A DNA stretch of 32,000 nucleotides, taken from Acaryochloris marina S15 (GTDB lineage: Bacteria > Cyanobacteriota > Cyanobacteriia > Thermosynechococcales > Thermosynechococcaceae). Location of the stretch: positions 2,760,001 through 2,792,000 of the forward strand of contig NZ_CP064923.1 of NCBI RefSeq assembly GCF_018336915.1. Direction: 5' to 3'. This document shows, piece after piece, positions 21,001 through 27,000 of the stretch; the first letter of the stretch is position 1; each line of letters begins with the position of its first letter. Position numbers: made by a program.

Positions 21001-24000
21001 AATTATACGATTACATTTGCCACAAGGATTTTTGGATCAAGTTGCAATCGACCATCCCTTACTGGGACGACATGACCCATCAACAGCGGGCCGCTTTAAC
21101 CAGCTTTGCCTATAACAATGGCGCTGATTTTTACGGTTCCCCCAACCATAGAACCATCACACGCAACTTAAAAGAAAAAGATTGGCAGGCGGTCCCTGGC
21201 ACCCTGATGATGTACCGTAACCCCGGCGAAAATGTGGAAGTGGGGTTAGGTCGCCGCCGATATGCCGAAGCTAAAGTCTGGTGTGGTGAAGTGCCAACGA
21301 CCGCTTGTGCCGCCGCTGCCCAGGAAATTCAGACTGCCCAGGACTGCGAACCCATTGAACAGCGGCTCAAAATCAACCCACCGGCGGTGGTAGGTTTTGA
21401 ATCTATGGTGACCATCTCAACACCAATCCAACCTTCTGGTCCTCGGCAGCTCCATGTTATAGCAGGGATGAAAGGCCCAAAGTCTCATCCAGATGCCCAT
21501 GGCTTTAAACCCGGAGACTATCATCTAGTGGCCAATGATGCCGTAGGGAAGATCAAGTGCTATGACTATGACGGTACTTTGATGTGGGAATTATCATGTC
21601 TCTGTCGTGGTCAGTTTGAGGACAATTACTTTGGCAAACATGGAGATACCCCGGCAGGTCTCTACAAATGTGGGCAAATCTATCGGGACTATGAGCAAGC
21701 GGGTGACCATGCTGGCTATACCCGCGACCGCATGTCTTATGGCTGGTTTAGTTTTGATCTGGTTGAACTAGAAAGCCAAGAAGCTAATCTGGGTCGGGCA
21801 GGGATTATGATCCATGGCGGCGGCAGTGGTTGCGGATGGCCAGGTGCATGGAAACCGAAGCAACCTATGTTCGCAACCCTAGGCTGTATCAGAATGTATA
21901 ACCAAGATCTACGCGACAAAGTCGTGCCCTTATACGATCAGCCTGGTGCCACCCTTTTTGTCAGTGTCTATCAGTAGCTACTCTCTTAGAAGAGACAAAG
22001 ATGACAGAGTGAGAAATACTGTAGCCGATCGCTAGATTAAAACAGTGTTCCAAGAAGCCAAGCTTTGCATCTTATTTCAGCCAGGATTGAACTTTTAGCG
22101 GCAATACCACCGGACATTGAGCAGGATGAACTCAGCTTGATAATGACGCCATTTAGATAGGTTAGCAGTTTTCATGGGTGGGAGAGAAAAGAAACACAGC
22201 TTCTCAGATTACCACTGGTTCTCAGCGCAGACACAATTTTTCGACACAACTAGGTAATTCATGAAAGGTAGACGGAGTTTAGCTTATGGCACGCAATCAG
22301 CCTATCAGACTGGTGTAGGCTCCTAAATTTTGGCTATTCAGGACTGACAGATTCAATGTTTGGCTGCCATCGTCTTTCACAACGGTGCAGAGGCGATAAA
22401 AATACTCTACACCACCAGGATTTTATAGTTTGGAGACTTTTCCTAAGCATGAGCAACGTATTATTGGTCCCGATACATGCAGATGCCTTACATCTCAAAT
22501 TTGGAACCGGTGTTGCAGAAACAATGACAGCGCCTAATCGCCTCCCCTATTTCAGTGGACAACGAGATGTTAATCCTGATATTGCTAATCTCAGTGAGTC
22601 TATTGTTTCTCAACCTTTTCAAAATAAGAACCTTTTTCTAAAAGCGGGCATTCATCTACATTGGTCTTTGCCTGATGCCCTGACTCAAGAAATTGAGAAT
22701 GGCAACTTTCCAGCAGTTCCCAATCGTTGGTTAGTCACTCGGCGACTGGATAAAGATACAGAACATTGGGTGATTGAAAGTGATTATCTTTATCCACCCG
22801 ATGCAGGTTTTCAGGAGGATAGTGTCATGTATCCTTATGCTGACTCCGAAAACTCCTATCTTCCAGGCTTTCGGTATCTTGGCCGAACGCTAACATTAGA
22901 GGAATGGAAGCAACAGCAACCAGCAAGTAGCGCCGATGCCAAGCACCTAGAGCGCTTGACGGCTATCGGGTATGGTGAACCCACGTTTGCGGCTTTTTAT
23001 CCTAATTGTCGAAGTGTATTTGGCTTTCACGATCCTAAATATGCCGATGCTACAGCGCTGCCCGAGGGTCTGCAATACGATGTGATTGGCTGGTACAGCA
23101 ACGCTGAGCAGAACTATCTGAGCGAATTTATCCAAGATTTTAAGAACAACTTCAAGACGGACTTTCCAGATGCAGAATTGACGCTCGAAGCCTTGATGAA
23201 CAGTATCCAAGAGGAATTCAAGTGGAAATTTGAGTGGGGGGATGAGAGCTTGAATCCAACAAGTGAAGCCCCTCAGGTTGTCTGTTATTCACGGTTAACT
23301 TTCCAACCGCCTAAAGACTACTCAGGGCAACCTCCCTTAGAGACCGCTAATATTCGTCTGGCTGTTGCAAATACAGGCACAGAGGCCTTATCAGCTTATC
23401 TGGCTGAGACTATCGATCAATCTCAGAAAGCGGCGATTGAGGAACAATTGGAAGCGCTACAGTTTACCGACGACTTAGAAAGTCAACAGTTAGATATTGG
23501 CCCTAAGTGTCAGGAGATTCGTCATGAGGCTGGGTTCAATGCGGTCACGGGCCACTTTCTGTGGAAAGTTCGTATAGAAACACAAACACAGCCATCCTCT
23601 TCAGATCCGTCTTCTTCAGAAAGCACATCTTCTCAGACAAAATTTGACATCCCATCCGATATTGCCGCCGGGCTCAATGCTCTCAACCAGCAACAGCAGC
23701 TCTATGATGCTGCATTGGCAGAATTGGGCGCTAGACGTAGACAACTTTTCTCTGACTGGTACAAGTATATGATTTGTGCCTATCCCCCAGAAGATAGCCA
23801 GGATGACTATCCTGATATTGATCAAGTCAAGTACTATATCCAACAACGAGGACTCGAACCGCTATTAGAAAAGGCCCAGGCCACTGGAAAATTAGATTTA
23901 GATAATCCAGACAGCTTGCCTCTGACATCAGACTCTGAGATTTCCCTGGCCTCCGAACTCGCGGGGCTAATCAACAATGTAGTGCGGACGATTGATACCC

Positions 24001-27000
24001 ACAATCAAGCCCTTCAAGATGAATACGATGCTCTAGACGAGACAGAAAAAGAAAAAGCGTCTCAGCCGCCGACCTATCAGTTGGAATTGGTTAGCGGGCC
24101 TCGCTACTGGGAACCGAAAGAGCCAGTTGTGTTAATGGAAGGGGATGCTGTCGCAGCGAGTCAACGGCATGGTGAAGATGGTCGTTTGAGTGAGGATGGG
24201 TTACTTGAGTGCCAAACGCTTACTAATCGGACGATTCAAGATTTAATTGCGGAAGACTTCAAACTTGTTTTCGAGACAATTGACCAACTCGATCGTCAAA
24301 GCGAGCAAGAAGGAATCGGCTTTAATATTTGGACAGCTCAACCTTGGAATCCCATTCTACTGGAATGGTTGGTTGAAGTCTTTCCAGTGACTGAAGGTGG
24401 TAATAAAACGTCCGCCAATCGTAAATATAGTGATAATTTTCTAACGCGAAATTATACACTGCAGGCAAATGATATCGATTTATCACCCGAATCTACCTAC
24501 GCTGTTGCTGCAGATACGGCGGCGAATCGCATCAAAACGGACCAAGATTCTAATATCTACAGCGGCTCTAGCATTTTAACGCCCTATGCTAATTCACTTC
24601 TGCAGATGCGAATTGAAGCGTATTTGCAAAAACACAAAACGCTGGAAACCTATTATCAAGAGCAAAACATTGAGCTGGATCAGCAGAATATTGAGTTGCT
24701 AGCCGAGCAAATTGACAATATTGAGTTGTGGTACGTCAATAAGACTTTTTCGGACCCTATCTATACCGCGATTAAGGCGTATCAGGAGCTACAAAGCTTA
24801 AATTGTTTGTCTCAGTCTATCGGCGGGTTTAATGATGTACTGCTCATGCACAAGCAAACCTTGCAGCTAGAGATTGAAGACCCGATTGGGTTTGCGGATT
24901 ACCAGGCCTTTACATCCGAGGTGGCGGCAGCGGTTGAAGATGAAGCTGAAAGTGCTCCCCAACCGTTGGATGATTTTAGTCCGATTCGCTCGGGAGAACT
25001 GCGGATTATTGATTTGCAGTTAGTGGATACGTTTGGACAAGTTAGAAATTTAGACTGGCAGGTTAACTCAAATGAATATGTGATTAAGCCAGAGCATATG
25101 AAGGCCGCAGAAAACAATCGGATTAAGCTGCCGCCTCGCTTTGTGCAACCCACCCGGATTAATTTCCGTTGGTTAGCTGCCAATGATGCAGATAACCGAG
25201 AAACCAATGATGATCCTAGCACTACGCCTATTTGTGGCTGGATACTGCCGAACAACCTGAATGGGGGTTTAACGTTTTACGATAATGCGGGGCAAGCGTT
25301 GGGAGCGATTAATGTCAATGGGGAATGGGATGATGTGCCGGGCGAAACGACCCTGGCGACCACAATCATTGAGGGACAAGAAGTTCCCAATATTGCGAAT
25401 CCCCATTTGCACAAAATGGTGAAAACCATCATTACGTCAGGCCCTGAGTTTGTTGAAAACTTTAATCTATGTCTCAACAATGCGCTGAATCATATCGATC
25501 CAGAAAACTTTGCGCAGAATCAAAGTTTGGCCTTACTTATGGGACGTCCGATCGCAGTGGTGCGAGCAGCCGTTAACTTAGAGCTACAAGGACTTCCCGC
25601 CATCAACCAAGATTGGACTGTATTTCGTCAAGATATGCAGCAGATGCGATCGCATGAGCAAAGAGACACGGATGATTTAACCGAGGTCAAGGTTCCCATT
25701 CGCATTGGAGCGTACCAACAACTTAATGATGGCGTCATTGGCTATTGGAAAGAACAGCCTGTAGCAGAGGGAGGCTATGAGTATGAAGACAACATTTTCT
25801 ATGCCCAACAAAGCGATTTGAATGAATCTGACAAGATTGAAGGCGTCGAAGAAGTCCCCATTAATATTATCCAGTCCATTAGCAGTCCTCCCCAACGATT
25901 AACGATGTTGGTGGATCCGAGAGGGAGCGTTCATGCCACAGCGGGTATTTTGCCCAGTAAGGTAATTACGATTCCATCGGAACAGTATGCAGAGGCGTTA
26001 GCCAATATTAAGGTGACGTTCTTAACGACACCTATTTTGACGGAGCGGACCCAACAAGGGCGTTTGCACCTGCCGTTGCCAACAGCGCCGGACTATGACT
26101 GGGTTTGGCTAGAGCAAAAAGGCAGAGACACCTGGTCAGAGATTTTGACAACGCCAGTGATTGAGAAAACAAATTTTGTTCAATCTTTCGTTGAGAAGAC
26201 ATCTGATCCCAATCTAGATCCTGACTCTGTGTGGCAAGGATTATTAGATCAAGCATGGCTCACATTTCCGCCTTCGGGTGGTAATGGCGCTGCTTCGAGT
26301 AAAGCCCATATTGTTGACCGAGATAAACGGGAAGTCCTGACGGGAGCCTTGGAAAATCTCGATGATTTGATTGATCAGATCTTTGATCTACAGGAAATCA
26401 GCATCAATCCAGTTTCTTCTCAAGCCACCTTCTTAAGGGAGCAAGAAATCCGAGAAGGATGGCTGGTGTTGAGCCCATCCCAACGCTAACTATTACTTTG
26501 GCAGACAAACAGAATACAGTCGCTAGCGCTACTCACTGCCAACCCACCCCGCCCTACGGGCACCCCTCCCAAGAGGGGATCTACTTTAGGCTTGTCTATT
26601 TAAGTGCCGGGGCAATAAGCTCTGGCCAAGTCTAGATCGAAGGAACCGAATAACGCTGCTTTTTACGATTCTTTGAGGAGACAACAATGGAACAAATCAG
26701 TATTAATTTAACCCTGGAAGAAGTCAACACAATCCTAGAATCCTTGGGCCGACTTCCTTATACCGAGGTTTTTCAACTTATTCATAAAGTCAAAGCGCAG
26801 GCTGAGGCTCAGGTGCAGGCGAATGAAATACGCAGGCAGGAACAGAATCCATCTGTCGCACAGGCCAATTTGGAAGTGCTTGTATAAGCACCCGTTTTAT
26901 TAGAACCAGTTGCAAAAGAACTAATTGCGCTCTTTTCGGGCAAATCATTCAATTTGGAGAACGTTCAATGGTTAGTGTAGTGAACAACGGTCTTATTAAG

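Follow-up and report, generated by a model that had tools for sequence, protein, structure and literature searches.

What does a protein of 1346 amino acids (aa) with no recognisable domain do in a cyanobacterium, and which genes belong with it? The question is raised by a stretch of 32,000 nucleotides (nt) from Acaryochloris marina S15 (contig NZ_CP064923.1, positions 2,760,001 to 2,792,000; hereafter the window), a piece of cyanobacterial chromosome with ChpXY and ndhD3/F3-type genes. The open reading frame (ORF) in question, here called BIG, occupies 22449-26489 on the plus strand. A first answer is that BIG, an open frame under selection with many homologues and no match to known families, is almost certainly a core subunit of a cassette marked by a protein of the Pfam family DUF6603 (PF20248), and a constant component of a mobile operon. 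Two further names are used below, FIB for a fibre/lectin protein and P723 for a protein of ~700 aa.

An uninterrupted frame of 1377 aa extends from 22356 to 26489. The ATG at 22449, giving 1346 aa, was taken as the start on the basis of the aligned N-termini of relatives and a public record of 1346 aa. The ratio of nonsynonymous to synonymous substitution rates (dN/dS) against five relatives of 71-94% identity was 0.13-0.15, which marks BIG as a functional gene under purifying selection. The product has an isoelectric point of 4.4, and its nearest named relatives are found in metagenome-assembled genomes of Acaryochloris. An earlier note on this DNA, made from the letters of the sequence before any database search, had reported the 1346-aa ORF at 22449-26489 together with several motifs. 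The ORF was confirmed, the Ser-rich linker proposed there is present, and all the motifs quoted were located in their places within BIG:

Residues 5-16: LLVPIHADALHL
Residues 31-37: RLPYFSG
Residues 67-80: GIHLHWSLPDALTQ
Residues 90-99: VPNRWLVTRR
Residues 383-395 (nt 23595-23633): Ser-rich stretch
Residues 740, 747 and 757 (nt 24666-24728): NIEL units
Residues 927-954: PICGW... block

The absence of a P-loop, a signal peptide and RHS, RTX or cadherin repeats, also part of that description, held in pattern, hydropathy and Pfam searches, all of which came back empty; Pfam showed neither HemolysinCabind nor a cadherin family. A pattern search gave no Walker A motif, the N-terminus is not signal-like, and no membrane segment was seen, no 19-residue window having a Kyte-Doolittle mean above 1.6.

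BIG opens a series of genes that runs from 22449 to ~5.6 kb past the end of the window, where it is followed in a 35-kb continuation (L002) up to L002:7639:

22449-26489, plus strand: BIG, core subunit of the cassette
26687-26887, plus strand: 66-aa ORF, a small cassette member between BIG and FIB with a conserved N-terminal motif of ~32 residues
26968-28620, plus strand: FIB, a 550-aa protein of tail-fibre/lectin type, assigned from gene position, the Pfam domains of its family and profile matches in PDB
28860-30839, plus strand: slot enzyme, a 659-aa nucleotidyl cyclase resembling ExoY/EF/CyaA (Pfam Anthrax_toxA, 6.7e-17; PDB matches to ExoY, oedema factor and CyaA)
30899-32000 and on to L002:5444, plus strand: DUF6603 protein, 1514 aa (PF20248, 5.3e-140)
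L002:5468-7639, beyond the window: P723, directly after the DUF6603 gene

The locus thus has a PF20248 protein in the operon, P723 directly behind it and a fibre gene, the features of a DUF6603 cassette. The order BIG-FIB-cyclase-DUF6603-P723 recurs in six close-relative loci, which came from a single-sequence query of genome contigs that reached only close relatives, and other cyanobacterial genomes have BIG-FIB-(0 to 5 variable genes)-DUF6603-P723. The linkage extends well beyond these. Among 80 metagenome loci, FIB lies directly 3' of BIG in 52 of the 54 with at least 1.5 kb of room, and DUF6603 lies downstream of BIG in 25 of the 27 with at least 9 kb; the remaining two carry DUF6603 upstream, in the permuted order DUF6603-P723-BIG-FIB. 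The megaplasmids of Streptomyces and Paenibacillus are likewise permuted (DUF6603-P723-BIG). Spacing is tight: at most 60 nt separate BIG from FIB in 35 of 59 loci, with 4-nt overlaps in seven, and DUF6603 from P723 in 18 of 19. The motif of the 66-aa ORF, which has no Pfam match and here sits in a 479-nt gap after BIG, follows BIG directly in 34 of ~105 loci, distant metagenome loci included, and so accounts for many of the BIG-to-FIB spacers of 170-340 nt. Across 401 cyanobacterial genomes, BIG was found in 8 and DUF6603 in 9, six having both complete. Scans for promoters and terminators were uninformative, giving fewer sites than shuffled sequences.

BIG does not match the PF20248 profile, and profile comparison with the DUF6603 family by hhalign gave a probability of 0.1%. 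Paralogy among the four core cassette proteins was considered as well and is ruled out (hhalign probabilities of at most 0.9%). One cyanobacterial genome (G158) has a DUF6603 gene (L024:11368-14766, L025) whose operon contains other large ORFs, 1209, 1483 and 663 aa long, and searches with phmmer and with the BIG profile recovered no relative of BIG there; some DUF6603 cassettes therefore have different or much diverged partners.

The family of BIG is large. A word-indexed search returned more than 1260 relatives, all annotated as hypothetical and none with a recorded Pfam domain, and an exhaustive HMMER search with residues 1-1200 gave 3270 clusters at 50% identity (E at most 0.001), 1705 of them at E of 1e-30 or below. 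Microcystis, Moorena, Leptolyngbya and Tolypothrix are among the many cyanobacterial hosts; outside this phylum the gene occurs in Kouleothrix (Chloroflexota) and Blastocatellia (Acidobacteriota), and on megaplasmids of Streptomyces, Embleya, Kitasatospora and Paenibacillus, so that at least five phyla are represented (Cyanobacteriota, Chloroflexota, Acidobacteriota, Actinomycetota and Bacillota). Within Cyanobacteriota the distribution is patchy: besides the low count among the 401 sampled genomes, BIG was not found in four other genomes of the same family that were searched. The earlier impression that other uncharacterised proteins share the N-terminal block was borne out, as H-x-H-W-x-x-P occurs within the first 400 residues of 276 of 283 long homologues.

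For a family of this size, BIG has no convincing known relative in sequence or fold. Pfam gave no match to the whole protein or to six pieces of it at E of 5, NCBIfam and PADLOC gave none, and PDB sequences were not matched by phmmer or by a 26-sequence profile at E of 10. ESM Atlas returned solely unnamed clusters of hypothetical proteins, with no usable named cluster. The fold searches used two multi-domain models of BIG, each searched whole, and fold novelty is not claimed for each single domain; Foldseek against PDB gave best E values of 0.15 and 0.083 with template modelling (TM) scores below 0.1, and no enzyme fold was among the structural matches. The literature searched yielded no papers on DUF6603, PF20248 or five BIG homologue accessions.

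These searches bear directly on the idea that BIG survives as a relic from the tail tip or baseplate of a phage and that the locus is a decayed prophage or tailocin module. The adjoining FIB gene is indeed tail-fibre-like, and a lysis pair of cyanophage type lies a short distance upstream in the window:

20077-21977, plus strand: holin-like gene and GH24 lysozyme-YkuD fusion, 470 nt upstream of BIG

The rest of the evidence runs the other way. Neither BIG, FIB, the DUF6603 protein nor P723 matched PHROGs at E of 0.01; tblastn of BIG against 50,697 phage records found nothing; two conserved BIG patterns recovered no relative from IMG/VR contigs; and a BFVD fold search with residues 1-740 stopped at a best E of 0.12. 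In none of the loci examined was there a gene for a capsid, sheath, tube, portal or terminase, other loci show no linkage of the lysis pair to the cassette, and selection on BIG is purifying rather than relaxed. A phage origin of this kind is hence highly improbable. The earlier note had named a clear match to a housekeeping or phage structural family as a result that would count against its reading; Pfam, NCBIfam, PHROGs, the phage records, IMG/VR and BFVD (residues 1-740) gave no match of either sort.

The architecture of BIG was approached with AlphaFold2 models of two overlapping pieces built on a 63-sequence alignment. The model of residues 1-740 had a predicted local distance difference test score (pLDDT) of 82.6 and a predicted TM score (pTM) of 0.75, that of residues 540-1346 a pLDDT of 82.8 and a pTM of 0.74. 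Together with the alignment, they divide the protein as follows, all on the plus strand:

22449-23588 (residues 1-380): N-terminal beta-rich domain with the conserved block (GIHLHW, VPNRWLV)
23589-23654 (residues 381-402): disordered Ser-rich linker, pLDDT below 50 at residues 381-397 and 22% identity to relatives
23655-24068 (residues 403-540): long helical hairpin with a tip of variable length, the hairpin of the model spanning residues 403-527
24069-24584 (residues 541-712): middle (second) beta domain, from model and alignment
24585-24797 (residues 713-783): variable helical insert with the three NIEL units, 40-256 residues in relatives
24798-26138 (residues 784-1230): best-conserved core, large and beta-rich, with an Ig-like sandwich
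26139-26486 (residues 1231-1346): variable C-terminal tail, 36% identity to relatives and 32-185 residues long

The models predict a beta-rich body that is conserved and from which two helical inserts protrude; the length of these inserts varies among relatives, from 120 to 240 and from 40 to 256 residues. The Gln/Glu-rich coiled coils with a thrice-repeated NIEL unit proposed earlier survive in part: the three units are there, and the model has a helical hairpin and a helical insert, but NIEL is not a tandem repeat. Ninety alignment columns are invariant from cyanobacteria to Actinomycetota and Bacillota, mainly G, P, W, L, R and D. In homologues of greater length (1600-4246 aa) the BIG body is complete but interrupted at a few fixed points by insertions that reach ~780 residues; in five examples of 1900-4246 aa (P0241, P0257, P0222, P0187 and P0196) these points lie near profile positions 82-89, 127-136, 232-296, 450-484, 730 and 1060-1090. 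Because insertions of hundreds of residues are tolerated at fixed points, a scaffold with surface loops is suggested; judged from sequence comparison, BIG is most likely a structural body with exposed, evolvable protrusions, unlike an enzyme. One of the long homologues (P0222) has a 2700-aa C-terminal extension without a match.

BIG might nevertheless itself be an enzyme, for example a metal-dependent hydrolase acting through the N-terminal His-x-His, or a glycan-processing protein. H69 and H71 lie on a single beta-strand of the model and are invariant, along with D195, E331 and D436, across the 63 diverse sequences of the alignment, and one homologue (P0257) has an inserted carbohydrate-binding PUD domain. 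Against this, the His-x-His is gone from the Streptomyces and Paenibacillus members, a loss in distant members that favours a scaffold over an enzyme; moreover, no enzyme family was matched even at E of 5, nor was any enzyme fold. Catalysis by BIG is accordingly regarded as very unlikely. The earlier note had seen in BIG a structural or translocation component of an island. The structural role fits, given that there is no catalytic residue set common to the phyla, no enzyme family or fold and a firm linkage to a fibre gene; the boundaries of the island did not stand, the true unit being the operon that starts at 22449.

The partner genes indicate what such a body might be for. FIB belongs to a family with a conserved core of ~375 positions and a variable C-terminal end, many members having an extra N-terminal domain of ~200 aa. 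Its Pfam domains are Laminin_G_3 (24 of 42 members), Collar (5), Peptidase_S74 (3), Gp10_C (1) and C1q (1), and in PDB the profile matches fibre proteins of Bdellovibrio, phage tail fibres and lectin domains; domains and profile matches together identify FIB as a binding protein of fibre type. Between FIB and DUF6603, the slot usually measures 1.2-2.8 kb and holds one gene on the same strand, whose product differs from locus to locus. A scan of 38 slot ORFs found MBL fold proteins in 10, Lipase_3, Anthrax_toxA-type cyclase, Peptidase_M91, DUF5636, Uma2 and HSDR_N in two each, and PLD, EEP, LCAT and GNAT in one each. The ExoY-like cyclase fills the slot here and only in the closest relatives (L004-L006, L012, L028 and L029); its likeness to known cyclases is confined to the N-terminal part of the 659-aa protein, the C-terminal two thirds having no match. 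Small genes resembling Uma2 and HSDR_N occupy the slot in several cyanobacterial cassettes (L007:17524-18111; L020:10901-11512 and 12325-12912; 215-aa ORFs in L019 and L020), and these may be selfish insertions instead of cargo. The DUF6603 protein and P723 have no relatives in PDB, a profile search included. The sole strongly hydrophobic 19-residue windows of the cassette (Kyte-Doolittle means up to 1.89) lie inside the DUF6603 domain, at residues ~828 and 1003-1034 of the protein encoded at L002:900-5444; they might be a membrane-inserting element or simply buried core.

We propose, as the preferred reading, that the cassette quite possibly builds an outward-acting particle that carries an enzyme. 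In the cytoplasm the five or six cassette proteins would come together as one large complex, in which BIG would be the subunit that carries the fibre; FIB is proposed as a trimer. The complex would be released without a classical signal, perhaps through lysis; its fibre would bind glycans on another cell, and the slot enzyme, here the ExoY-like cyclase, would be brought to that cell. BIG would possibly serve as a non-enzymatic scaffold subunit of this self-contained, horizontally mobile operon. That it carries the fibre is suggested because its gene is nearly always directly upstream of FIB, often with translational coupling; as a specific role drawn from gene order, docking of the fibre by BIG is a doubtful proposition. 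In its fullest form, put forward only tentatively, the reading makes BIG, DUF6603 and P723 the body of an undescribed class of non-contractile, fibre-bearing particles, with no homologue among phage tails, Tc toxins or secretion systems, which would be spread over at least five phyla and would take exchangeable enzymes (cyclases, lipases, MBL-fold hydrolases and peptidases) to other cells, with BIG as a fibre-holding scaffold of new fold.

Several results weigh against an outward-acting particle. The core proteins have no signal peptide or membrane segment, save the hydrophobic stretches in DUF6603, and the operon has no linked gene for secretion, an ATPase, a sheath or a tube. No gene outside the operon is conserved among the 25 loci with at least 4 kb of upstream sequence, and the lysis pair, unlinked to the cassette elsewhere, does not provide a general release route. 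BLAST revealed no adaptor domain shared by the variable slot proteins, and no immunity-like small gene stands beside the slot enzyme at an ORF cut-off of 120 aa, which ORFs below 100 aa would escape.

The want of export signals and secretion genes is what an intracellular conflict or anti-phage system would lead one to expect, and this is the main rival. BIG, DUF6603 and P723 would then act together as a sensor complex in the cytoplasm, with the slot enzyme as an abortive-infection effector released or activated on infection. The patchy, transfer-like distribution among cyanobacterial genomes fits such a system, as do the MBL fold, PLD, lipase, peptidase and EEP families of the slot, all known also as defence effectors, and the Uma2- and HSDR_N-like genes found there. 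In addition, on a Streptomyces plasmid CATRA and CHAT conflict genes precede a cassette by ~5 kb, an interval that holds several unrelated genes. What makes intracellular defence unlikely is the obligate partner FIB, whose lectin, tail-collar, endosialidase-chaperone, Gp10_C and C1q domains are outward-facing binding modules. The ExoY-like cyclase, too, is more familiar as a toxin that works in another cell, and PADLOC was empty for the cassette proteins: BIG, FIB, the cyclase and the start of DUF6603 were all unmatched in PADLOC-DB 2.0, its sole row being a weak, chance-level match on the lysozyme gene.

Outward-facing modules would also suit a cell-surface structure for adhesion or feeding that stays on the producer, its fibre binding substrates or partner cells and its enzyme digesting locally, with nothing delivered. 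The lectin-rich fibres agree with it, and so do the many slot proteins that are general hydrolases instead of classic toxins and the absence of immunity genes. It is made quite improbable by the core proteins of the locus, which have no anchor, S-layer-homology domain, sortase or membrane segment, and by the ExoY-like cyclase and M91 peptidase, which are not feeding enzymes. The surface structure, the phage relic and the enzymatic BIG are all less likely than intracellular defence.

The proposed enzyme-carrying particle can be set against systems already described. The Tc (ABC) toxin complexes of Photorhabdus, Xenorhabdus and Yersinia (TcA/TcB/TcC) are alike in that one operon encodes several very large and acidic subunits devoid of signal peptides; modules for receptor binding, a payload enzyme that differs between loci and a spread that is patchy and horizontal are also common to both. 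A lysis cassette serves for the release of Tc toxins in some species. The differences lie in the parts: Pfam found no RHS/YD repeats and no VRP1, TcA_TcB_BD or neuraminidase-like families in BIG or the other cassette proteins, and neither the shell-and-channel fold of TcA nor the RHS cocoon was among the Foldseek/VIA matches of the two multi-domain BIG models. Moreover, the Tc payload is a C-terminal tip, whereas the cassette encodes its payload in a separate gene and has a distinct, tail-fibre-like protein for binding.

Extracellular contractile injection systems and tailocins (Afp, PVC, R-pyocin) resemble the cassette in several respects: a targeting protein of tail-fibre type whose ends can be exchanged, cargo enzymes encoded at the locus, a lack of signal peptides together with assembly in the cytoplasm, which for the cassette is a proposal, and a mobile distribution. 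They differ in that the cassette loci, with only four or five core genes, lack sheath, tube, spike, Baseplate_J, LysM and AAA+ genes; no Pfam family for sheath, tube, spike or baseplate J was found in the window or its 35-kb continuation. The fibre modules of Bdellovibrio chimeric fibre proteins and of phage tail fibres (PDB 8ond, 8ojn and 9qgo) are common to FIB only, whose lectin heads also resemble those of other surface proteins, and BIG is unlike any fibre, adaptor or baseplate protein found in these searches.

The umbrella toxin particles of Streptomyces are described as built on a polymorphic-toxin protein with lectin spokes (PMC13274773). They resemble the proposed particle as multi-protein assemblies that combine diversified lectins for target specificity with a toxic enzyme module, and Actinomycetota are among the hosts of both. 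To the extent that Pfam scans of the cassette can tell, the BIG, DUF6603 and P723 families are not part of the umbrella particles. The DUF6603 family itself is catalogued in Pfam and unstudied; its proteins are encoded with BIG in one operon in essentially every locus with enough flank, but BIG has neither the domain nor detectable homology to it.

The family of BIG thus comprises thousands of clusters, some in bloom-forming Microcystis, yet no Pfam entry, similar structure or paper was found for it, and an operon that joins a lectin fibre to a swappable enzyme has the gene logic of toxin-delivery machines without their defining parts. If the particle is real, it would be a new kind of inter-cellular weapon or tool with a bearing on cyanobacterial ecology, for example on grazers and competitors, and possibly a chassis for programmable protein delivery; if the cassette serves defence, it would be a new large immune complex. 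With five or six genes, it is small enough for heterologous expression to be within reach.

Regarding the surroundings, the holin-like gene and the lysozyme-YkuD fusion could in this strain serve to free a cytoplasmic complex through lysis. As a candidate part of the cassette the pair was rejected: no homologue was found in any of ~100 related loci, the nearest relative (94% identity) included. Its presence near BIG is treated as a local coincidence or a recent addition. In the closest relatives a divergent gene upstream of BIG, on the minus strand, encodes a WD40-repeat protein of ~1190-1210 aa (L004:3032-6604, L005:5966-9541, L006:3442-7068 and L012:4177-7782), which is absent from the window and from distant loci; in some of these close-relative loci RTX-repeat proteins are encoded between the WD40-repeat gene and BIG. 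In the window, an AT-rich stretch at 16300-20070 (33-37% GC versus ~46-50% elsewhere) lies between core genes on one side and the lysis pair and cassette on the other, and one intact gene within it, at 18159-18986, encodes a sulfotransferase.

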